Part shown: positions 4,961 to 33,200 of the stretch, in pieces
Layout: each line of letters begins with the position of its first letter
How positions within the stretch are numbered: position 1 is the stretch's first letter
NCBI GenBank assembly: GCA_964632315.1
Contig: CAZWEM010000029.1
Span: forward strand, 3,271 to 55,439
Source of the DNA: an uncultured archaeon
GTDB lineage: Archaea; Asgardarchaeota; Lokiarchaeia; Sigyniarchaeales; SOKP01
Reading direction: 5' to 3'
DNA length: 52,169 nucleotides
The notes under the pieces: generated by a model
The model's input: the letters and a program-made list of their open reading frames with translations, nothing else
Told to the model about the DNA's origin: nothing
Database searches by the model: none
Program-made: the position numbers and the translations under genes

Positions 4961-6091
4961 CTAATAACGTTTTATAATATTATATATAGTGTCTCTTTGA
5001 GCGGGTTTTTTACCAGCTAATCTTATGATTTCTATTATTTCTTTTGGACTTAGATATTCTCCAAATTCTGCTCCAGCACTTTTAGATATATTTTCTTCCA
5101 TTAAAGTACCAGAAAAGTCATTTACACCAAAATTCAGTGAGATTTGAGCTAATTTCGGGCCGAGTTTAACCCAAGAACATTGGATATTGTCAATATAATT
5201 TTGGAAAAAAATGCGCGCTACGCAAAAAAGTTTTAGATCATCCATTCCATAACTCGCTCTCAAGGGAAAACCTTCTAACCTTGAAAGCAAGGGTTTTTCT
5301 TTCACGAATGGTAATGGAACAAATTCGGTAAAACCGTTTGTATCTTTTTGAATGTTACGTATAACTTCCAAATGATCCATTATATCCTCAAGACTTTCAA
5401 TATGGCCATACATGATGGTTGAAGTTGTTGGAATCCCTAATTTATGTGCTTTTTTTATCACATTTATCCATTGATCTGTACTGAGCTTATTTGGACAGAT
5501 AACTTTTCTTACTCTATCCACCAAGATTTCTGCGGCTGTTCCTGGCATTGAATCTAGCCCAGCCTTTTTTAGCTCGATTAAAGTATCTTCTAACGAAGCT
5601 TGATACAATTTCGACATATACCATACTTCTTGAGGTGAAAAAGCATGAATATGAATATCTCTACTCACAGCTTTTACTTTTTTAAGAATATCGAGATAAT
5701 AATCAAAATTGATATTGGGATTAATACCTCCTTGCATGCAGACTTCTGTACATCCATTATTTTTAGCTTCTTTTACCTTCTCACTTACTCCATCTAAAGA
5801 AAGTAAAAATGCATCTTTCTGCTTTGAGGAAACGCTAAAAGAACAAAATTTACATGATTGGTAGCAGATATTCGTAAAATTAATATTTCGATTGACGACA
5901 AAAGTAACAATATTCTTTTTTATTTCATAACATAAATGGTCCGCTACCTTTTGTAATGAGAAAAATTCCTTGTTGGTGGTTTTTAGTAGTTCAATTGCCT
6001 CATCTTTATTGATTTCCTCAGAATCTAATGCCTTTTTTAATATTTTCCTTATTTTAGGGTTAATGTGATCCAGAGAATTAGTTTCAAGCAT
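4961..6091 (-). CDS. cofH: FO synthase subunit CofH (radical SAM)
   Basis: NRNINFTNICYQSCKFC, QGG, HAFSP, SMPGTAAEIL, TIMYGH, EFVPL, EENIS; adjacent to cofG. Confidence 0.92.
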   Translation of the reverse strand: MLETNSLDHINPKIRKILKKALDSEEINKDEAIELLKTTNKEFFSLQKVADHLCYEIKKNIVTFVVNRNINFTNICYQSCKFCSFSVSSKQKDAFLLSLDGVSEKVKEAKNNGCTEVCMQGGINPNINFDYYLDILKKVKAVSRDIHIHAFSPQEVWYMSKLYQASLEDTLIELKKAGLDSMPGTAAEILVDRVRKVICPNKLSTDQWINVIKKAHKLGIPTTSTIMYGHIESLEDIMDHLEVIRNIQKDTNGFTEFVPLPFVKEKPLLSRLEGFPLRASYGMDDLKLFCVARIFFQNYIDNIQCSWVKLGPKLAQISLNFGVNDFSGTLMEENISKSAGAEFGEYLSPKEIIEIIRLAGKKPAQRDTIYNIIKRY

Positions 6092-7192
6092 CTAAATAAT
6101 ATCATGTATTCTTTTTTTAATATTTTCTGAAATAAAACCCCGTTTCTCTATATATTTATCATAAACAGGTAACCTTTCCTTCAAGTGAAAACCATAGCGT
6201 TGACATATTTTGCTTAACTCTTCTATTTGAGGCCATGGATGTTCTGGATTTATGAAATCTTTTGAAAATGGTGAAATCCCACCAAAATCATCTATACCAG
6301 CTTCTAAAAATTCTTTTTCATAACCTCTAATCAAATTAGGAGGAACTTGAATCGGGATTTCATTATTAAAAATTATATTGGCAATTAACGTAATTTGTAA
6401 TAGTTCCTTAACTGATGAGGGTTTTTTAGGTTTATATGGAATTCCCTCTTTGCATGTAAAGTTTTGTAAGATAACCTCTTGAATATGCCCGTACTCTTCA
6501 TAAATATTATTAATAATTAACAAATCTTTAATTCGATCTTCGAATGATTCCCCTATACCAATTAATAAACCAGTTGTAAATGGAATTTTTAGTTTTCCTG
6601 CATTTCTAATATGATTCAGCCTTATAGAAGATGCTTTAGAAAGAGAAAATTGATGAGCCCCTCCCTCTTCTAATAATTTCAAGCTGGTACTTTCCAGCAT
6701 TAACCCCATACTAGCATTATATGGCTTTAACTCATTTAATTCATCAAAAGATAGTAAACCTATATTTGTATGAGGTAAAAGATTACTCTCAAGTAGAGTG
6801 GAACTAATTTTTTTGATAAAATCTATGTAACCATTGAAATTTCTTTCTTTAAGCCTATTTCTAACGATCTCAAACTTTGCGGGATTTTCACCGGACATTA
6901 GTAAAGCTTCCTTACAATGATATTTTAATCCTTGTTCAATAAGATTATTGATTTCTTCACTCTCAATTAGAACATTATTTGCCTTTTTATCTGATTTTAA
7001 AACACGATGATTATAAAAACAATATCCGCATTGGTTTTGACAATAATTGGAAATTGAGAGCGTAAAATTTTTTGAAAAAGTGATTATTTTTCTCTCTGTC
7101 AGTGGTTTTTGATTTTGAATGTCATCGGATAGATCTCTTAATTTCCTAAGAGACAAGTTTTTTAATTTTAAGATTTTTTCCTCTTCTAACAT
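6092..7192 (-). CDS. cofG: FO synthase subunit CofG (radical SAM)
   Basis: TFSKN, CQNQCGYC, LPHTN, SMGLMLE, IPFTTGLLIGIGE, QVPPNL, DDFGGISP, NPEHPWP. Confidence 0.92.
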   Translation of the reverse strand: MLEEEKILKLKNLSLRKLRDLSDDIQNQKPLTERKIITFSKNFTLSISNYCQNQCGYCFYNHRVLKSDKKANNVLIESEEINNLIEQGLKYHCKEALLMSGENPAKFEIVRNRLKERNFNGYIDFIKKISSTLLESNLLPHTNIGLLSFDELNELKPYNASMGLMLESTSLKLLEEGGAHQFSLSKASSIRLNHIRNAGKLKIPFTTGLLIGIGESFEDRIKDLLIINNIYEEYGHIQEVILQNFTCKEGIPYKPKKPSSVKELLQITLIANIIFNNEIPIQVPPNLIRGYEKEFLEAGIDDFGGISPFSKDFINPEHPWPQIEELSKICQRYGFHLKERLPVYDKYIEKRGFISENIKKRIHDII

Positions 7193-10295: not shown

Positions 10296-11435
10296 TTAGC
10301 GTTTCTTTAGAAAATGTCTATAAATAAGCATGTAATTTTTTACGCTAATTATTTTAGGGTTTCGTCTATAACTGGAGGAGATAGGTGCACTACAGCGAGA
10401 ACATAAATTAGAGGTGTGCATCCAATCTTTAAATTCATCTGCGTGAGCTGGATGTTTACAATTTGGACATAAAACTACCCCCCTATTCTTATCTTCGGGA
10501 AGTTTTGGTAATTTAAAGCAAAAAATACATTTGAAATCTTCTTCTGAAATCATAGAACCTTTAGGTCTATATTTATTCAAATCTCGGACTTTAGCTAGAC
10601 TTTGTGAACTTTTAGTTTTTTTTGTAGTTTTAGTCCTTTGAACACGAGCATGGGTAGGTCTAATTCTGGAGTTTTGAGTTCTATTAGAGGTTGTACGCGC
10701 GCTTCTGTTGGAGGAGGGACTTTGAATATTCGATCTGACTCTACGAGTCGTCTGGCTTCTAGGAGTTGCCAAATCATTTATTCTTCTCGTTCTTCGTGCT
10801 ATATACTCTCTTGTCAATTCGGGCATACTAGATTTTTTTCCAAGAAAGCCAAAAATGAATAAATTGAAAATGGATATGATAAGCAGTAGTAAAAGATTAA
10901 GATCTAAAGAAAAACGGAGTGGTGTAAGAGCAGAATTAAACACCTCACTTACATTATAAAAAACAACCCAGTATAAAATGATAAAAATAATTAGTGAAAA
11001 TGCTAAAATAAACCCTAGTGCTCTCGCGTTCATCGACTTAGTTCTAAAATAGATTACTCTGTATTTTTTAAAACATCTATAAAGTGAATGTGACCCATAG
11101 ATCACGAAAGGGAGGCCAAATATAAGACTCCAAAAGCTAAAATAAAGATTAGAGCCAGAAATTAAGTTTTCACCCAAGATTCCAGTAAATGACCCCCAGA
11201 TGGAATAAAAAACTCCAATTAACAAGGGTACAATCACAAAAAAAGCAGTATTATAGGGCGAATTAAACTCCCTATGCCGCTTGATATTTTCAAAGAGTTT
11301 AATCGTAAAAACTAACCAGAATCCAATTAAAATCCACGTTATGAGATTATTCAATGAAGCCGAAATTAGACCATGAATCACTCCAATTAAAAAAAAAATA
11401 GTTAGGATTATTAGAATAGCTTTTCTTTTTACCAT
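10296..11435 (-). CDS. Polytopic membrane protein with C-terminal RING-H2-like zinc finger (putative membrane-anchored E3 ligase)
   Basis: About six hydrophobic helices, R/S/T-rich linker, then CIFC-x16-CPNCKHPAHADEFKDW-x6-CSRC; last gene of the Ubl-E1-E2-JAMM run. Confidence 0.8.
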   Translation of the reverse strand: MVKRKAILIILTIFFLIGVIHGLISASLNNLITWILIGFWLVFTIKLFENIKRHREFNSPYNTAFFVIVPLLIGVFYSIWGSFTGILGENLISGSNLYFSFWSLIFGLPFVIYGSHSLYRCFKKYRVIYFRTKSMNARALGFILAFSLIIFIILYWVVFYNVSEVFNSALTPLRFSLDLNLLLLLIISIFNLFIFGFLGKKSSMPELTREYIARRTRRINDLATPRSQTTRRVRSNIQSPSSNRSARTTSNRTQNSRIRPTHARVQRTKTTKKTKSSQSLAKVRDLNKYRPKGSMISEEDFKCIFCFKLPKLPEDKNRGVVLCPNCKHPAHADEFKDWMHTSNLCSRCSAPISSSYRRNPKIISVKNYMLIYRHFLKKR

Positions 11436-11458: not shown

Positions 11459-12265
11459 TTATTCATCATATTCTAAATAAGCAGGTTTTCCTTCGATTAT
11501 GGGATTCATGAAATCCAAAATCTCAGGTAACATTCCGATATCTAAGTTACCTTTTATATCGAAGGGAACAGAGAACCACTTCTTTTTATTTAAATTAGCA
11601 CGATAAATTTCAAAACCTAGAGATTTTCCATTTATCTTATATGGATCGATGACTAAAGCAATCGCTTTTTCCCATAACTTTTGATACCTTGCTTGAGTTC
11701 CCAAGTCTTCTCTTGACATAAAACATCCATATGATGGGTGGGAATGATACCATCCACAGATGAATAATTTATTCTTTTTAATATCCTTAAATGCCCTTAC
11801 ATAATTTTTATAATCCTTGATTTCAGCATACACTGCAGTACCGTGTCCCATTGGATAGGCATCTTCGATATGTAGAATATCGGAATTATTATCATACTTT
11901 CCAGCTAATAGTCCGATAACCTCTACCCAATCTTCCCTTCTAATGCTAGAGTGAGCATATTTTAATGCGTGGCTTGTTATTTTAAGGATTGCCTTTACAG
12001 TTATTTGGATGTTTGCAGTTGGTTTTTCATAACTTGCAACAGTTTTTATAGGTTCCATTGGGATGGGTTCAAGATTATCCTTAACTTCAACATCTATATG
12101 ATTCAATGGTTGGATATCAATTAGCTCTGATGTTAACTCTTCTTGAAGTTCTTCTTCTATTTGTAATTCTGTATAAATCTCTTCTAGCAATTCTTGTTTT
12201 ATTTTCTCCTTAATTTTTTGTTTAATTGCTTCTTTGATAGCAGCGCTATTTTTATCGGTATTCAT
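11459..12265 (-). CDS. MPN+/JAMM metalloprotease (Rpn11/CSN5-like deconjugase)
   Basis: EVIGLL, GWYHSHPSYGCFMSRED (H-x-H-x7-S-x2-D), ALVIDP; likely start ATG 12265 behind GGTGA overlapping the E2 stop. Confidence 0.92.
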   Translation of the reverse strand: MNTDKNSAAIKEAIKQKIKEKIKQELLEEIYTELQIEEELQEELTSELIDIQPLNHIDVEVKDNLEPIPMEPIKTVASYEKPTANIQITVKAILKITSHALKYAHSSIRREDWVEVIGLLAGKYDNNSDILHIEDAYPMGHGTAVYAEIKDYKNYVRAFKDIKKNKLFICGWYHSHPSYGCFMSREDLGTQARYQKLWEKAIALVIDPYKINGKSLGFEIYRANLNKKKWFSVPFDIKGNLDIGMLPEILDFMNPIIEGKPAYLEYDE

Positions 12266-12272
12266 GGTATAC

Positions 12273-12800
12273 TCACCATTTATCCTTTGCATACTTCTTG
12301 ACTAAATTTTTTACCTTTTTCTCAAACATTTTTTGATTTTTCATCATTTCCAAGGCTGCCTTCTTATTAAAAACATCCGTTGGATTAACGTATTTTCCGC
12401 GAGTATTTAGCATTGCAATTATGGCTTGAACGACGGTAACAGCTGTTTTTGAAGGGCTCCATCCCCCTTTTTTTCCGACTAAAGAAGGATCGACTAGAGC
12501 TAGACAGATATTCCTCTGTCCTTTATATTCACTCGGTTTTGGCCAAAAGTTTGGATGCCAAATGGGTGTGTGTAATCTCACAAAAGGAGGTTGCTTTGGA
12601 TATTGAGCTGGAAATTTCATTTCTAATTTAAATAATCCTCCTGCGTATGCTGTTCCTTTAGGGCCTTTAATTGTTATAGCAACATGATCGATACTTTTTC
12701 TTTTCGGATCAAAGGGTTTTAGTTGAACAATTGTCCCTTCTTTCAACATTTTTTTAAGTCCAGCAAAATCTCGCGAAACTCGACTACTTCTTATACTCAT
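12273..12800 (-). CDS. Ubiquitin-conjugating enzyme E2 (UBC fold)
   Basis: IKGPKGTAYAGGLF, FPAQYPKQPP, IWHPN, catalytic ICL, WSPS. Confidence 0.93.
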   Translation of the reverse strand: MSIRSSRVSRDFAGLKKMLKEGTIVQLKPFDPKRKSIDHVAITIKGPKGTAYAGGLFKLEMKFPAQYPKQPPFVRLHTPIWHPNFWPKPSEYKGQRNICLALVDPSLVGKKGGWSPSKTAVTVVQAIIAMLNTRGKYVNPTDVFNKKAALEMMKNQKMFEKKVKNLVKKYAKDKW

Positions 12801-12859: not shown

Positions 12860-14095
12860 TTATTTTAACTTAAGCGTAACCATAATTTCTCCCCCTTTAA
12901 AACCCGCTATCGTCAAAAATTCATAATTTCTCAAATTATTTTCGATAACTGTCTTTTCTAAATCCAATATGATTATATCGTTAAAATCTTGTAAAGTCAT
13001 TAATGGTTCGAGGTCGGGATCCAATTGAAAACCATTCTTCTTCAAAATTTTTATAATATTAATACAAGGAGATCGTTTGCTCATTTTTATAACTACTCTT
13101 CTTACACCTTTCCCACATTGAATGCATTCAGGATTTCGTTTTTTCTCAATGTGATAAAATTTCATAGTCATCGCATTAAATATGACGTAATCTGATTCAG
13201 GTTTTCCTAAACCTTTATGTCCTTTTTCCCAATGAATGATTTTCACGGCTTCATGGGATTGGAGGGCAGAAATAACCGCATTAATCGTGATTATTCCTGG
13301 ATCGTGTCGATCAATTAATTTGACTATGTCATCTTGAGTATATTCGGGCAAGAAATTATATTTGTTTACTAATTCATTTGCAGTTTTTTGAATGAATTTA
13401 ATATCATTTAAATTTTTAGGATTCGGTTCTCTTTCAAATTTTTCCTTAAAAGCCATATCCCCTTTAAATACACAATGAATTCTTTTCCTAGGAATTCCCA
13501 CCACGGTGCAAGCAGCCATTTCATCGTTTTCTACCACCGGCAAGGGATTACATTCATAGCAAGCATTCTTATAAGGAAATATCGTGTAGATATGTCCATG
13601 ATAACCAGAAACTCCTCCATCAACTAAAGGTTTTCTAAACCGGATACATTGTGCATTTAAGTTCAATCTGGCGTTCATAGAATCAAGTCCTCCAATAATA
13701 ACATCAGCATTATAGTACAAGGAAGGATCTAACCTTTCTAAAGAGGTATGGTATCCTATGACGGTGATATTTGGATTAATTTCTCTCAATTTTTTTGCGG
13801 CTACAATAGCTTTAGGCTCACCTAGTCTAGCATCTGTAAAAAGAATTTGTCTGTTTAAATTTGAATGTTCAATAATGTCTAAATCGACGAGATCCAAATG
13901 ACCCACTCCTAACATAGCTAGGTTTTTAGCAATTTCACATCCTAATCCACCTACTCCAATAATTAAGACTCTCGCATTTTTAACTAATTTCTGAGACCAT
14001 CCTTCTAAACGGAATTGCCTGTCATATAAATCTCGTTCTTCCATTGACATTCCTTTTGCAAAAAAATCTGATTCTTTAACCAACCACATCACCAA
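12860..14095 (-). CDS. Ubiquitin-like activating enzyme E1 (ThiF/UBA3-like, with C-terminal ubiquitin-fold domain)
   Basis: LYDRQ, GVGGLG, DLDIIEHSNLNRQ, CYEC and CIQC zinc pairs, catalytic-Cys segment AACTVVGIPRKRIHC; exact start uncertain (14095 to about 14050). Confidence 0.93.
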   Translation of the reverse strand: MVMWLVKESDFFAKGMSMEERDLYDRQFRLEGWSQKLVKNARVLIIGVGGLGCEIAKNLAMLGVGHLDLVDLDIIEHSNLNRQILFTDARLGEPKAIVAAKKLREINPNITVIGYHTSLERLDPSLYYNADVIIGGLDSMNARLNLNAQCIRFRKPLVDGGVSGYHGHIYTIFPYKNACYECNPLPVVENDEMAACTVVGIPRKRIHCVFKGDMAFKEKFEREPNPKNLNDIKFIQKTANELVNKYNFLPEYTQDDIVKLIDRHDPGIITINAVISALQSHEAVKIIHWEKGHKGLGKPESDYVIFNAMTMKFYHIEKKRNPECIQCGKGVRRVVIKMSKRSPCINIIKILKKNGFQLDPDLEPLMTLQDFNDIIILDLEKTVIENNLRNYEFLTIAGFKGGEIMVTLKLK

Positions 14096-14106
14096 TAATA
14101 TTAATC

Positions 14107-14144
14107 AAAAAAATAAAAAAATTGAAGGGCTAAATGCCCTTTCA
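14107..14144 (-). terminator. Hairpin plus T-tract between Ubl gene and E1
   Basis: Minus strand reads AAGGGC-ATTTA-GCCCTT followed by CAATTTTTTTATTTTTTT. Confidence 0.55.
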
Positions 14145-14172: not shown

Positions 14173-14505
14173 TTAAACGTATCCAGCAGTACTCGCAGGT
14201 ATTAAAAGAATATCGTCACCATCATTAACGTTATAGTCTTTTAATTGATTGCTTTCGTCCATCGTAACACCACCAGATGAGAGATGGAACTCATCTGGGT
14301 CAAGTCCAAATAAATTTCCTAAAGTATGTTTAATATCGCTTACCTGATTAGCATCATTCACGACCAATTTCTCTTTCTTTTCACCAGGACCAATAGTTGA
14401 CATAAAATACAATGTCACTTTTCGACCTGTAGAGGGGACCTTACTTGATGGGGTTTTAGATTTAACTGGTTCTAATTCCTCATCAAAATCGTCATCAAAA
14501 CTCAT
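14173..14505 (-). CDS. Ubiquitin-like (UFM1-like) modifier 1 with acidic N-terminal tail
   Basis: Beta-grasp pattern KVTLYF...LKDYNVNDGDDILLIPASTAG-YV; first gene of the E1/E2/JAMM/RING run; GTGA upstream. Confidence 0.85.
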   Translation of the reverse strand: MSFDDDFDEELEPVKSKTPSSKVPSTGRKVTLYFMSTIGPGEKKEKLVVNDANQVSDIKHTLGNLFGLDPDEFHLSSGGVTMDESNQLKDYNVNDGDDILLIPASTAGYV

Positions 14506-14762
14506 TCAAATCACTTTTTTTAAGGTTTTTTTTAGTTTTTATTCTGAAAACTTAATAATAACATCTAAAAATACTATTATAAAACCAATTGGAATGATTA
14601 TGAAGTTTTAAAAAATATCAAATTTCGTGAGTTTATAACCATAGTATATTATATCTATATATTTAATGGCAATCTATTAATGCATACTCAATAAAGTTTA
14701 ACACTTAAAGAGAAGAAATATTAATAATAACCTAAATTCTGAATATCACGCATTTTAAACCA

Positions 14763-15440
14763 ATGAGCACTCCAGATGAGGTTGAGCCACTTGTTCTCGG
14801 CTTAATTAAAGAATATTTACAAAAAAAGCCATTCTTTTCAATTGAAGACATAGTTACCTATATAAATAACAGAACTAGAGCAAAACCTTATGTAAATAAA
14901 AATAAAATTGAAAAAATTATTAAAAGACTCATTAAAAAGCGTAGAATTATACCTGGGACTAAATTAATGAAAAATAACATTATTGAGCATCCTATTAGAA
15001 ACGAAATATTTAATTTCGTGAAGAAAAATCCCTCTAATATCAATGAAATTATGAGAGCTTTAAACATCGGCAGTAATCAAACCCTATGGCACTTATCTTG
15101 TTTGGAAAAATTTCAATTCACGCGTTCAAGAGATATTGAAAATCAAAGAATAATTTTCCTCTATGAATCCGATCCGGAATTAGATGAAATTTATTTCTAC
15201 TTAAACCAAGATATTGTTCAAGAAATACTTGACCTGATGATACAAGAAAAGGAATCTCTAAAAGTATCTGATATTTCAAATCAGTTAAAAAAGAATTATA
15301 ATACTATAAAAAAGTATTTACAAATCTTAAGAAAGTTAAGAATAATTTCAATTGAGAAAGATAAGAAAAGAACCCTTTTTAAATTAAATTACAAGGAATA
15401 TGATAAATTTCAAGATTTAATCATTGGAGGAAAAAAATGA
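14763..15440 (+). CDS. Multi-winged-helix (ArsR/HTH-like) DNA-binding protein
   Basis: RNEIFNFVKKNPSNINEIMRAL..WHL..LEK and ISNQLKKNYNTIKKYLQILRKL wHTH repeats. Confidence 0.75.
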   Translation: MSTPDEVEPLVLGLIKEYLQKKPFFSIEDIVTYINNRTRAKPYVNKNKIEKIIKRLIKKRRIIPGTKLMKNNIIEHPIRNEIFNFVKKNPSNINEIMRALNIGSNQTLWHLSCLEKFQFTRSRDIENQRIIFLYESDPELDEIYFYLNQDIVQEILDLMIQEKESLKVSDISNQLKKNYNTIKKYLQILRKLRIISIEKDKKRTLFKLNYKEYDKFQDLIIGGKK

Positions 15441-15519
15441 ATACTTCACAATTATTCCAATGGATTTTATATGGTGAATCATCTATTAAAAATTTAGAAA
15501 ATAATCTATCCTAAAAATT

Positions 15520-16314
15520 ATGAAGAAAAATTCTCGCATTTATTGGACATTAGCTTTGTATCTTATTTTTACAGTATTATACCTACTTTTCTTCATTTTA
15601 AAGATAGATAATTTTCCCTTATTTATCATTTTGACAATCTCTAGCGCTATGGTACTTTCCAGTAGCACTATTTATACTATTTCCCGATCTACAATCACTC
15701 ATAAAAGCCCCACCCCCAAAATTAAACTTTCTCCAACAAAGAAAACATTGGGTAAATTTACTTCAGAATTAATTGAAGATTATTTTGAAGCAATGCCAAT
15801 AATCGACCAGTACGCCGATTCAGACGCCCCTTATGAGGAAATTTCCCGAATAGACGAATATGTTTTTACAGAATTTAATAACGAGGATCTAATGAAAATT
15901 GATAGCTTAAAATTATCAAAAATGGACAAGATTTTTTTTCTGAGGGAAATGCTTTACTTTGAACCTAATGAAAGGAGATATTTAATCAATGAGATGCTTA
16001 AATATCAAGAAGACCCAAATATACCCGTTTCATATACTCCATTAATAACCCCTTTTGGTATTGAAGATAAATTACGAATCTATTCTCGGTCATTGATAGA
16101 ACCAGGAGAAAAAACAAAGATAATTATTATTGAAAAATCAGATTTTATTAGCGAAGTGAAACTTAAAATTGGGACTTTATTCGATTATGATTTGGATGAT
16201 TTTGTTTTATCGTCTGGAGGGATTATATTAGATGAAAAATTGCAAATTAATCATTATAATATCGAAGATGATGATGAAATTGCTATTATACCCTCAAGAA
16301 AAGAAAGAAAATAA
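15520..16314 (+). CDS. Two-TM membrane protein with C-terminal Ubl domain paralogous to the modifiers (no terminal Gly)
   Basis: Two N-terminal hydrophobic helices; C-terminal 80 aa about 31/80 identical (manual, ungapped) to Ubl1 (PGEK, LSSGG, DE, IP) ending SRKERK. Confidence 0.8.
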   Translation: MKKNSRIYWTLALYLIFTVLYLLFFILKIDNFPLFIILTISSAMVLSSSTIYTISRSTITHKSPTPKIKLSPTKKTLGKFTSELIEDYFEAMPIIDQYADSDAPYEEISRIDEYVFTEFNNEDLMKIDSLKLSKMDKIFFLREMLYFEPNERRYLINEMLKYQEDPNIPVSYTPLITPFGIEDKLRIYSRSLIEPGEKTKIIIIEKSDFISEVKLKIGTLFDYDLDDFVLSSGGIILDEKLQINHYNIEDDDEIAIIPSRKERK

Positions 16315-16315
16315 A

Positions 16316-16735
16316 TTAAATGTTTATTTTACCAGCTGTACTAGCTGGAATTAATAATATATCATCTCCATCACTCACATGATAATCACTCAAATGAGTT
16401 CTTTCATCCATAGTGATACCTCCAGAAGATAAATGAAAATCGACTGGATCCAGTCCAAAAATATTAGCGACGGTTTCTTTAATTGCACCAACAAGATTTC
16501 CTGTATTTACTAATAATTTTTGCTTTTTTTCCCCTGGACCAATAGTAGACATAAAAAAGACGGATATTTTGTCACCTTCAACGGATACCTCTGGTGTCTT
16601 AGTTGAAGGTTCTAAATCTGGAGACTTTGAAGGCGGTCCCTCAAGCGATTCTTCTGAATCATCTCCTAAATCTTCATCTAGATCTTCATCAAATTCTTCA
16701 TCGAATTCATCATCAAACTCTTCGTCAAAATCCAT
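16316..16735 (-). CDS. Ubiquitin-like (UFM1-like) modifier 2 with long acidic N-terminal tail
   Basis: True start likely MDFDEEF at 16735 (GGTG upstream); core 56/80 identical to Ubl1 by manual alignment; ends LIPASTAG-KINI. Confidence 0.85.
   Translation of the reverse strand: MDFDEEFDDEFDEEFDEDLDEDLGDDSEESLEGPPSKSPDLEPSTKTPEVSVEGDKISVFFMSTIGPGEKKQKLLVNTGNLVGAIKETVANIFGLDPVDFHLSSGGITMDERTHLSDYHVSDGDDILLIPASTAGKINI
16669..16732 (-). repeat. Imperfect 12-bp/4-aa coding repeat (DFDE EFDD EFDE EFDE DLDE DL)
   Basis: F/L every fourth residue in a D/E tract; tcttcatc/tcatc units on + strand. Confidence 0.65.
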
Positions 16736-16871
16736 TTTTAGCACACCAAATATATCTAAGTAATTAATAGAATTTATAGTATATAAAAATATGAGAAAAC
16801 TTAAGAAAGCAAACACTTTAGAAGCTGTCTTGATATAAATATAATATAGAAAATTATTGAGTGTTCTAAAG

Positions 16872-18029
16872 ATGGATGAAAAACCTATTCCCAAGCAACA
16901 GATTCGAGAAAAACTTCCTAAAGAGGAATTAGATGCAGATTTTGATTCTGACTTGTTGAGAAAAATAAGGAAGGAAAGATTTAAATTGAGCAAGGAAAAA
17001 GAGGAATGGGAAAAAATATTGAACAAAATCCAAGAATATGATGAAAGTATCGAAGATCTAGAAAAGAAAAGAAAACAAAAAGAAATCGAACTTAGAAATC
17101 TAGTAAATCAGAATGAAAAACTTAAAAATGAGTTAGAAAAAAATAATAATGAAATTAAACAAGCAAATAGCATTCTAAAATCGAGAGAGAAAGAATTAAA
17201 TCAAAAAATTGATGATTTAAATAAATATAAACAGAAATTGGATAAGATTAGAGATGATATTGAAGAAGAAAGAAAAAAATTAAAACAAGAGAAAGATAAA
17301 GCTGAAGAACGCATAGAAAAAATTAAAACCAAAATTCCAGGCATGGAAAGAAGAGAGAATGCGTTAGAACGAACAGTCAATGATTTTGAAGATAAACTTC
17401 AAAATCTAAGGAATGAACTGAGAGAATTAACTAACAAAAGAAACTCTCTTAACAAGGAATTAAGTGATTTAAAGAGACAAATGGTGGATGAAAAAAATAG
17501 AATAGATGAAGAGAAAAAAAAATTAAAAGAAGAAAGAGATAAAAACCGAATAAAAAAGAATGAATTAAAATCATTAAATCGAGATATAGAAAATAAACAA
17601 GACAAACTAGAAAAGGAACAAGATAAAAGAGAAAGAGAAATCAAGTCGTTGGAACGGAAAAAATCGAATCTGGAATCAAGATTAAAGGAATTAGAAAAAA
17701 AAATTCCAAAATATGAGAACCAGTATTATTCTAATCAAGATAAAATAAAAGATTCTGAAGAAAAGATTAAAAAATTAAATTCTGACGTAAAAAAGTTGGA
17801 AAATGAAAAAGCAAAGCTCGCTTCTGAAATCAGAAATAAAGAAAAAGCGATAATGAAAGAAGATTCAAGAATAAGAGAAGAAAAAAATGCTATCAAAAAA
17901 GAAAGAGAAAAACTCGAAAAAGATAAAGCTCGTTTTATTAGGGAAAAAAGAGATTTTGAAAAATCATTAATAAAAGCAAAGAGTATACCAAAAACAAAAA
18001 TTAAGTCAAAAACTCCTTCTAAATATTAG
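16872..18029 (+). CDS. Long coiled-coil protein, function unknown
   Basis: About 340 aa of nearly uninterrupted K/E/L heptads, no ATPase motifs; likely ATG 16872. Confidence 0.75.
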   Translation: MDEKPIPKQQIREKLPKEELDADFDSDLLRKIRKERFKLSKEKEEWEKILNKIQEYDESIEDLEKKRKQKEIELRNLVNQNEKLKNELEKNNNEIKQANSILKSREKELNQKIDDLNKYKQKLDKIRDDIEEERKKLKQEKDKAEERIEKIKTKIPGMERRENALERTVNDFEDKLQNLRNELRELTNKRNSLNKELSDLKRQMVDEKNRIDEEKKKLKEERDKNRIKKNELKSLNRDIENKQDKLEKEQDKREREIKSLERKKSNLESRLKELEKKIPKYENQYYSNQDKIKDSEEKIKKLNSDVKKLENEKAKLASEIRNKEKAIMKEDSRIREEKNAIKKEREKLEKDKARFIREKRDFEKSLIKAKSIPKTKIKSKTPSKY

Positions 18030-32225: not shown

Positions 32226-33200
32226 ATGGCTATTCAATTCTTATTAGTTATATCGATCTCGTTAGTGATGGGGACAGTATTTTTTTTCACAGATTTATAT
32301 GAGAAAAAACATCCAAGAATGCATATCTCCCTAATAGCTGGTATTTCGCTTTCATATTTTTTCTTAGTTATCCTCCCTGAGATTTCGGAAAATATTCCAG
32401 AATATCCTTTTAACATAACAATTTTTGAATATCTTTTTGTTGTTTTGGGCTTCGTGTTTGTACACGTTTCCGAAAAAATGATTCTCCAAAAAGTAGAGCT
32501 TAATTCTCAGAAAAGAATGAGAAAATTAATGATTAAGGAAAGAACTCTCGAAAATGTAGAAAAAAATATTGAACTAGTTCTTGCAAGAGAAATTAACAAC
32601 GAAAAATTAGATGAATATGCATTAAAAGATATTGCTAGTGCCTTAAATAGCTTAAATAAACAAGAAGAGGAATTTAAATCAGAAATCAATCAATATAAAA
32701 TAAAAATCCAAACGCATATTAGTGAAGATCTAAGAAGGCTTCGGTTTTTTACTAATTTCACTTACCATTTTCTCATAGGTGTGATTATTGTAGGATTATT
32801 AAGAGATGAGCTAATAACTAATCCCATAATACCAACGATACTATTCTTCTTTTTTGCATGGTTTAGAGCTTTAATTTCACTTAGGACTGAGGCTCCTCAA
32901 ATTTTTTCTGATCTTGATATTTGTGAAATAAACATTGATAGAAATTCCAGACAGAGATATTTACTTTCAGGCTCAACATTATTAGGAGTAATGATTGGAC
33001 TAATTTTAGAAATAGTCTATCCAATTCAACTTGAATTAATATACGTTCTGTATTCCTTCATATCTGGTGTAATCATGTATTCAATATTTAGAGAAGTAAT
33101 TCCTCAGAAAGAAAAAGGAAAATCCTTATATTTCCTAATTGGATTTTTTGGATTTACCGTATTAATAGTTATAATAAACATATTCACGAATATACTATAA
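32226..33200 (+). CDS. ZIP-like membrane protein with cytoplasmic coiled-coil insertion
   Basis: AGIS..YFFL..LPE and SFISG.I.Y...REVIP motifs; about 8 TM; about 80-aa K/E-rich insert after TM3. Confidence 0.6.
   Translation: MAIQFLLVISISLVMGTVFFFTDLYEKKHPRMHISLIAGISLSYFFLVILPEISENIPEYPFNITIFEYLFVVLGFVFVHVSEKMILQKVELNSQKRMRKLMIKERTLENVEKNIELVLAREINNEKLDEYALKDIASALNSLNKQEEEFKSEINQYKIKIQTHISEDLRRLRFFTNFTYHFLIGVIIVGLLRDELITNPIIPTILFFFFAWFRALISLRTEAPQIFSDLDICEINIDRNSRQRYLLSGSTLLGVMIGLILEIVYPIQLELIYVLYSFISGVIMYSIFREVIPQKEKGKSLYFLIGFFGFTVLIVIINIFTNIL

Follow-up and report, generated by a model that had tools for sequence, protein, structure and literature searches.

Two paralogous ubiquitin-family proteins with an Ala-Gly end, encoded beside E1, E2 and JAMM genes in a Lokiarchaeial genome

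Background

Ubiquitin operons of Asgard archaea underpin the argument that eukaryotic protein tagging began in archaea, and the biochemistry to date has been done on tags that end in Gly-Gly. In the operon of Caldiarchaeum subterraneum (PDB 6FJ7, 6FNO) the genes for pro-ubiquitin, E1, E2, a small RING protein and an Rpn11-like JAMM metalloprotease are clustered; the JAMM shortens the pro-form by nine residues, cutting directly behind its last Gly, E1 activates ubiquitin only in this trimmed state, and the same protease also deconjugates (PMC5654768, PMC6043591). The Gly-Gly systems of Hel-, Heimdall- and Odinarchaeia draw on the same families of enzymes and likewise start from a pro-form, which in Helarchaeia carries a tail of 4 residues behind the last Gly (PMC9192718, bioRxiv 10.1101/2023.07.25.550441). 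Here we analyse a 52,169-nucleotide stretch of the genome of an uncultured archaeon (Lokiarchaeia; Sigyniarchaeales; SOKP01; assembly GCA_964632315.1, contig CAZWEM010000029.1, positions 3,271 to 55,439), referred to as the window and having a G+C content of ~30%, in which two paralogous genes for ubiquitin-like (Ubl) proteins, Ubl1 and Ubl2, encode products ending in Ala-Gly plus a short tail. The searchable literature yielded no reference to a Lokiarchaeal ubiquitin that ends in Ala-Gly or in a single Gly.

The locus resembles the Caldiarchaeum operon in its clustered gene set, in the short C-terminal propeptide, in having an Rpn11-like JAMM as the only obvious processing enzyme, and in that the Caldiarchaeum ubiquitin chains are the best structural matches of a Ubl1 model. 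It differs in that the tags end in Ala-Gly instead of Gly-Gly, with tails of 0-6 rather than nine residues, and carry an acidic arm of 28-55 residues with a conserved K-S-K-T-P motif; in having two or three paralogues in each genome and, besides these, a dead copy tethered to the membrane; and in a zinc finger fused to a polytopic membrane domain. The Asgard Gly-Gly tags were assayed as such, whereas the present genome holds both kinds of tag.

An earlier note on this stretch, made from the sequence alone, had proposed that Ubl1 and Ubl2 are conjugatable modifiers related to UFM1, or convergent with it, and matured by the neighbouring JAMM rather than by a UFSP cysteine protease. According to Picchianti et al., UFM1, UFC1 and UFSP2 are confined to eukaryotes, while UFL1 and DDRGK1 have origins in Asgard archaea (PMC10183829); in a 2026 paper, nine Asgard clades are reported to hold structure-based 'Ufm1 homologues', of which some are partial and some have several hit regions (PMC12962969).

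Results

Ubl1 and Ubl2 share an invariant Ala-Gly end

Ubl1 and Ubl2 are probably precursors of a Loki-type Asgard ubiquitin-family modifier, composed of an acidic arm, a core and a P-x-S-T-A-G tail and matured by a JAMM within a pathway of its own. Family membership, fold, the invariant Ala-Gly end, intact catalytic motifs and gene linkage were established by the comparisons below. The two genes and their parts are laid out as follows.

14173-14505, minus strand: Ubl1, a 110-residue Ala-Gly-type ubiquitin-family modifier precursor (open reading frame, translation, PF00240, AlphaFold2 (AF2), Foldseek)
14422-14505, minus strand: Ubl1 N-terminal arm, residues 1-28
14182-14421, minus strand: Ubl1 beta-grasp core, residues 29-108
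14173-14181, minus strand: Ubl1 tail YV and stop codon
16316-16735, minus strand: Ubl2, a 139-residue paralogue of Ubl1 (translation, PF00240 below the cut-off, family profile)
16571-16735, minus strand: Ubl2 hyper-acidic arm, residues 1-55, with 26 Asp/Glu and repeated D-E-E-F
16331-16570, minus strand: Ubl2 core, residues 56-135
16316-16330, minus strand: Ubl2 tail KINI and stop codon

Translation bore out the earlier reading of two paralogous precursors that share a STAG end and diverge into the unrelated tails YV and KINI: the C-termini are DDILLIPASTAG-YV in Ubl1 and DDILLIPASTAG-KINI in Ubl2, and the 80-residue cores (KVTLYF...STAG and KISVFF...STAG) are identical at exactly the 56 of 80 positions that had been counted. 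As had also been noted, neither protein has the terminal Gly-Gly typical of ubiquitin, NEDD8 and SUMO. The claim that conservation stops at the Gly held across the family. In an alignment of 46 sequences reaching down to 40% identity, Pro103, Ala107 and Gly108 are the sole invariant columns, followed by variable tails; the motif IP[AS]S[TS]AG is kept in 120/120 close homologues, and the looser [LIM][LI]IP-x-S-x-A-G is kept in representatives drawn from a search of 1.8 billion proteins. Forty-nine of 159 short-ended family units end exactly at the Gly, the others carrying tails of 1-6 residues that vary in both length and sequence. Within orthologue groups these tails are non-random (Y[FIV] is frequent in Ubl1 orthologues), and across family units Tyr is the commonest residue directly behind the Gly.

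Arrays in which two or three complete units (arm plus core) stand head to tail, each ending in ...AG, follow the logic of polyubiquitin precursors. The three-unit array (P0121, 372 aa) and the two-unit array (P0122, 250 aa) are metagenomic and lie on contigs of only ~1.2 kb. Taken together, the conserved Ala-Gly, the exact ends, the variable tails and the tandem arrays indicate that the Gly is the functional end of the protein. Judged from these alignments, chance falls far short of explaining why conservation stops at the Gly, and the penultimate Ala is a fixed trait of the family.

All named family members are from Asgard archaea, carrying the submitter labels Promethearchaeota, Hel-, Sigyn-, Heimdall- and Thorarchaeota. 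The family is also found as the C-terminal domain of larger proteins, ending at the Gly or one residue beyond it and joined to a Roadblock-like domain, a P-loop ATPase or a VWA domain (Sigynarchaeota label) in P0125, P0135 and P0166; whole fusion proteins of this kind might be conjugated through their C-terminal Ubl.

Sequence and fold place the tags in the ubiquitin family

Ubl1 matches the ubiquitin profile PF00240 with 27.3 bits (cut-off 25.4), which places it in the ubiquitin family. The same profile matches all three Ubl domains of the window, Ubl1 and the membrane-tethered copy above the cut-off and Ubl2 below it; Ubl2 matches the profile of the Ala-Gly family with an E-value of 1.6e-38. 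After members of the family itself, the next-best matches among the 1.8 billion proteins were eukaryotic polyubiquitins, and the matches among PDB sequences were ubiquitins. The core carries the ubiquitin signature stretch L-x-DYN-[IV], and alignment of the family profile to ubiquitin with hhalign gave a probability of 96.6% (E 6e-10).

The AF2 model of Ubl1 has a core with a predicted local distance difference test score (pLDDT) above 90 and ubiquitin topology (two strands, helix, two strands, short helix, strand), followed by a flexible tail. Its top three Foldseek matches are chains of Caldiarchaeum ubiquitin (6FNO_D, 6FJ7, 6FNN_C; E 5e-8), with ubiquitin variants, ISG15, NEDD8 and SUMO among the further matches. 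VIA-align returned Z-scores of 13-14.7 to ISG15, ubiquitin and NEDD8, with a root-mean-square deviation of 1.1-1.4 A over 75-79 residues to ISG15 and ubiquitin, and placed model residue 108 on ubiquitin residue 76. Neighbours in the ESM Atlas, by features and by shape, were ubiquitin-family clusters. UFM1 was not among the matches listed by Foldseek (best 50), VIA-align or ESM Atlas.

The likeness to eukaryotic ubiquitin, NEDD8 and ISG15 thus extends to fold, tail length (Gly108 falling on Gly76) and signature stretch, as well as to canonical E1 and E2 types and to the coexistence of paralogous tags with their own E1s. The differences lie in an identity of only ~20% and in changes at the positions of ubiquitin Ile44, K48, K63, Leu71 and Gly75. 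Under a mapping with a fixed numbering offset of 32, Ubl1 has Ser, Val and Asp at the positions of ubiquitin Ile44, Lys48 and Lys63, Pro at that of Leu71 and Ala at position 75, and retains Lys11 and Lys27.

In the AF2 model the N-terminal arm has low pLDDT, yet it contains conserved short motifs. It opens with an acidic, Phe-containing segment (D-D-F-E-D / D-E-E-F repeats), and K-S-K-T-P stands 85 residues before the IP motif in 102/164 units, with looser S-K-[TV]-P forms in distant family members; both motifs recur in every unit of the tandem precursors. A disordered arm ahead of a beta-grasp domain is a likeness to SUMO, whereas the match of the tag to the SUMO-type profile Rad60-SLD is weak (18 bits, below the cut-off). 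In SUMO2/3 the N-terminal arm carries the chain-forming lysine. By analogy, the arm lysines of the Loki tags may, speculatively, be chain acceptors.

The operon encodes canonical-type conjugation enzymes and an intact JAMM

Ubl1 heads a co-directional minus-strand run, Ubl1, E1, E2, JAMM and a membrane Cys/His-finger protein.

12860-14095, minus strand: canonical-type ubiquitin-like E1 of the ThiF family (PF00899, 3.8e-60)
12273-12800, minus strand: UBC-fold E2 with an HPN motif and a Cys at the expected place (PF00179, 2.5e-26)
11459-12292, minus strand: Rpn11-like JAMM/MPN+ metalloprotease, candidate maturase and deconjugase (PF01398, 1.7e-16)
10296-11435, minus strand: polytopic membrane protein with a C-terminal Cys/His zinc finger, candidate RING-type E3 (zf-RING_16, E 0.0055, below the cut-off)

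Pfam thus recognises the Ubl, E1, E2 and JAMM members of an archaeal ubiquitin operon, the RING-type member being weakly supported. The best solved relatives of the E1 are SAE2/UBA2, UBA1, UBA7 and UBA3 (1e-39 to 1e-35), UBA5 reaching only 1e-15; those of the E2 are ubiquitin, SUMO and NEDD8 E2s. The operon E2 is the sole full-length, uninterrupted UQ_con match in the genome, a partial match being present on contig C3. Other ThiF-family genes inspected comprise a MoeB-like gene, a UBA1-like gene and two short ones, and the one short gene that was searched is closest to tRNA threonylcarbamoyladenosine dehydratase.

The catalytic residues of the JAMM (E124, H183, H185, S193 and D196; E...HxH...S..D) are invariant in 30 orthologues. 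In seven families of the phylum (f1, f2, f5, f10, f14, f16 and f22) its gene lies within ~2-4 kb of an Ala-Gly Ubl gene, and the Ubl, E1, E2 and JAMM genes are linked. At the C-terminus of the protein (11459-11480, minus strand) an acidic Y-L-E-Y-D-E is conserved in orthologues.

When the JAMM domain was modelled in complex with Ubl1, the prediction scored 0.88, the highest of three controls reaching 0.53. The score mark is reached by 58/80 solved complexes and 2/110 mismatched pairs, counts that are only rough because custom alignments were used. Model runs agreed in at least 99% of contacts with a partner pLDDT of at least 89, and placed Ubl1 residues 100-110 in contact with JAMM E124, H183, H185 and 193-196. 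Since the Caldiarchaeum complex 6FNO is solved, this pass may reflect likeness only and is no proof of binding. The intact invariant motif, the conserved synteny and the complex model make the JAMM, rather than a UFSP, a plausible maturase, as the earlier note had supposed; its reading of both proteins as processed precursors likewise gains from the exact-Gly ends, the variable tails, the JAMM linkage and the modelled position of the tail in the JAMM active site.

A separate Gly-Gly ubiquitin is encoded in the same genome

A Gly-Gly ubiquitin gene lies elsewhere in the genome (G000:C8:32953-33144, within 32905-33156); its product ends in ...QAGG-C and matches PF00240 with 38.9 bits. Across genus and family it keeps 92-98% identity and so varies far less than the Ala-Gly tags do. 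A scan of neighbouring genes revealed no conjugation enzymes. A second canonical E1 (G000:C34:41765-43345; 527 aa, UBA1-like, 8e-40) and the Gly-Gly ubiquitin are confined to families f1 and f2, whereas the Ala-Gly tag with JAMM is found in the seven families, most of them without a strong match to Gly-Gly ubiquitin. Because it occupies the same two families, the second E1 is probably the partner of the Gly-Gly ubiquitin. We read the Ala-Gly tags as having their own pathway, apart from this pair; the phyletic pattern fits two parallel pathways, for which Ala-Gly versus Gly-Gly would be one possible insulating mark.

The hhalign comparison pairs the A-G of the family with the A-G of the genome's own Q-A-G-G ubiquitin end. 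One family member, P0140 (Helarchaeota label), ends in ...STAGG-F, that is, in Ala-Gly-Gly. The pairing hints that a last Gly was lost from the Ala-Gly family.

The operon E1, E2 and JAMM might instead mainly serve the Gly-Gly ubiquitin, with the Ala-Gly proteins acting as regulators, decoys or non-covalent adaptors. Such an arrangement would suit the single uninterrupted E2 gene detectable, the slowing effect of a penultimate Ala in the Caldiarchaeum system, the non-conjugatable membrane-tethered Ubl copy in the locus and the Ser at the ubiquitin Ile44 position (offset mapping). In seven families, nevertheless, the gene linked with those for E1, E2 and JAMM is the Ala-Gly gene and not the Gly-Gly gene; an invariant Gly, exact-Gly ends and tandem precursors are hard to explain unless the C-terminus is used; and the second E1 shares the phyletic range of the Gly-Gly ubiquitin. 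We regard this explanation as unlikely.

Kinship with UFM1 and with sulfur carriers

The UFM1 features cited in the earlier note proved correct when set against real UFM1 proteins, which start with KVSFKITLTSDP and end in RIIPRDRVG-SC. The reported match of the K-V...T..P start and of the IP-x4-G spacing stood in part: hhalign aligned the family with UFM1 in register over 73 columns (14% identity), weakly (probability 8.4%, E 0.004), and the spacing is non-discriminating because it equals the tail length of ubiquitin, Gly108 falling on ubiquitin Gly76. The case for a true kinship of the Loki tags with eukaryotic UFM1, as its relatives or its ancestors and with a JAMM in place of a UFSP, can be made from this in-register alignment with its T..P start and IP-x4-G end, ubiquitin itself aligning with UFM1 over only 9 columns (probability 0.4%). 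The UFM1 proteins were retrieved with a query that proved 100% identical to database UFM1s. The difference in score (19.7 vs 11.9) may only mirror alignment depth, since a fair bridge comparison would need deeper sets than those of UFM1 (>=88% identity) and of Gly-Gly ubiquitin (92-98% identity); the higher score of the family than of ubiquitin against UFM1 thus carries little weight.

In form, the tags share with UFM1 (which works with UBA5, UFC1 and UFSP1/2) a single terminal Gly that follows a small or hydrophobic residue, a Pro placed five positions ahead of that Gly, and a short tail, of two residues in Ubl1 as in UFM1 and of four in Ubl2. The genome moreover encodes a UFL1-like protein (G000:C59:12048-12668; PF09743 E3_UFM1_ligase, 55.3 bits, open frame of 801 aa), a gene that coexists with no Ufm1, UFC1 or UFSP profile match in the genome. 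With a UFL1-like protein present and neither Ufm1 nor UFC1 matched, the genome fits the picture drawn by Picchianti et al. (PMC10183829). Should the structure-based Asgard Ufm1 homologues (PMC12962969) be the same as the Ala-Gly family, that set would, by the present comparisons, lie closer to ubiquitin.

Set against these points, the Pfam Ufm1 profile (PF03671) matched none of the window proteins (E up to 1), nothing in the locus (E up to 10) and nothing across 301 Asgard genomes (E up to 0.001). The hhalign probability of 8.4% for UFM1 compares with 96.6% for ubiquitin, the fold matches listed are of ubiquitin, ISG15, NEDD8 and SUMO types, and the core bears the ubiquitin signature. The E1 is far from UBA5, the E2 is an HPN-type UQ_con protein, and the UFC1 profile had no match in the genome; Peptidase_C78 (UFSP) had none either, in a search that matched no control genome. 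An operon of UFM1 type, with UBA5-like E1, UFC1-like E2 and UFM1-like tag, was not found in the genome by profile searches, which may miss a divergent system. Processing of UFM1 is by a cysteine protease, here by a candidate metalloprotease, and the Loki tags are much closer to ubiquitin in sequence and, by the fold matches listed, in structure.

Membership of the UFM1 family was rejected on the Pfam, hhalign and E1/E2-type tests, and kinship with UFM1 is very unlikely. Of the searches that had been proposed as a check, the profile comparisons with PF03671 and ubiquitin favoured ubiquitin, and the structure matches listed were of ubiquitin, ISG15, NEDD8 and SUMO types. The idea of a UFM1-related tag was not supported; its 'convergent' variant suits the single-Gly end. 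On sequence, enzyme types and the fold matches listed, we read the Ala-Gly tags as a variant of archaeal ubiquitin and not as relatives of UFM1.

That the tags are sulfur carriers or other non-conjugating beta-grasp proteins of ThiS/MoaD/SAMP type is very unlikely: a ThiF-family E1 is adjacent, a tandem relative has faint precomputed ThiS matches and sulfur carriers, too, act through a terminal Gly, but no window protein matches the Pfam ThiS or MoaD profiles, the E1 is of UBA2/UBA1/UBA3 type and accompanied by an E2 and a zinc-finger protein, and a separate MoaD-like protein with a MoeB-like E1 is encoded on contig C5. The latter protein (MoaD/SAMP-like, ending in ...AIAGG) lies beside the MoeB-like ThiF enzyme and a TusA-like gene (L060:5429-5707, 5959-6774); by its sequences this set is a sulfur-carrier-type pair, distinct from the ubiquitin-type systems.

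Other features of the locus

Three further features lie around and between the Ubl genes.

15520-16314, plus strand: membrane protein with a C-terminal non-conjugatable Ubl copy, ending in IIPSRKERK without Gly (PF00240, 29 bits)
14763-15440, plus strand: protein of at least two winged-helix (ArsR-type HTH) domains, between the Ubl genes (PF01022 HTH_5, 1.4e-10, two stretches)
14125-14141, minus strand: G+C-rich hairpin with a T-run behind it, between the stop codon of Ubl1 and the E1 gene (terminator-like consensus scan and sequence)

The membrane-tethered Ubl copy is identical to the Ubl1 core at 31/80 residues, and its gene stays beside Ubl2 on the opposite strand across the family. In many genomes Ubl2 orthologues are found ~2.2 kb from Ubl1 orthologues. 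The hairpin and T-run 3' of Ubl1 could yield more Ubl1 than enzyme transcript. Divergent from Ubl2 is a gene for a 390-aa Lys/Glu-rich protein (16857-18029, plus strand), probably coiled-coil by its composition.

Discussion

The pathway that we propose for Ubl1 and Ubl2 has four steps. Following the Caldiarchaeum precedent, the synteny and the complex model, the Rpn11-like JAMM would trim the tail of 2-4 residues and expose Gly108. The canonical-type E1 would then adenylate Gly108 and form a thioester, after which the UBC-type E2 and the membrane zinc-finger protein, a probable E3, would pass the tag to target lysines, probably at the membrane. The same JAMM would also remove the conjugated tag. 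The penultimate Ala may serve as a specificity mark that separates this Ala-Gly pathway from the Gly-Gly ubiquitin and the second E1.

Several observations weigh against this proposal. In Caldiarchaeum ubiquitin, Gly77Ala strongly slowed processing by CsRpn11 and Gly77Val was not processed (PMC6043591); bulky residues just past the cut site also blocked CsRpn11 (PMC6043591), and the Loki family mostly has Tyr there. Given Ala107 and the Tyr after the Gly, the pocket of the Loki JAMM must differ, or the tailed forms are cut slowly or by another enzyme; by the same analogy, the Loki JAMM and E1 would both have to be adapted to the Ala-Gly end. Trimming is superfluous in about one third of homologues, so the main task of the JAMM may lie elsewhere than in maturation. 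With one uninterrupted E2 found, the enzymes of the operon could act on the Gly-Gly ubiquitin as well. The assignment of the membrane zinc-finger protein as an E3 is weak (E 0.0055, below the cut-off), Ubl2 on its own reaches only 20.3 bits against the PF00240 cut-off of 25.4, and the phyletic co-occurrence counts, in two and in seven families, come from related genomes and are non-independent.

A wider scheme would join two insulated pathways in Lokiarchaeia, one in which the Ala-Gly tag works with the operon E1, E2, JAMM and membrane ligase and one in which the near-invariant Gly-Gly ubiquitin works with its own E1, to the proposals that the Ala is the insulating mark and that the Ala-Gly tag, working with the UFL1-like scaffold, and not ubiquitin proper, is the forerunner in function of eukaryotic tags with a single Gly, UFM1 among them. 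As a whole we consider this scheme quite unlikely.

Conclusions

Read as a ubiquitin-family modifier, the Ala-Gly tag is a conserved variant of the known archaeal ubiquitin system. If the most widespread Loki-type tag ends in Ala-Gly, it would be invisible to proteomics based on the di-Gly remnant; since the last Lys of Ubl1 is Lys89, its tryptic remnant would be ~19 residues long. Such a tag is also a natural test of the purpose of the penultimate Gly, CsRpn11 handling Gly77Ala poorly. That the Ala-Gly tag occurs together with a Gly-Gly ubiquitin and a second E1 suggests an origin before eukaryotes for the division into parallel, insulated Ubl pathways, of which ubiquitin, NEDD8 and SUMO are the eukaryotic example.

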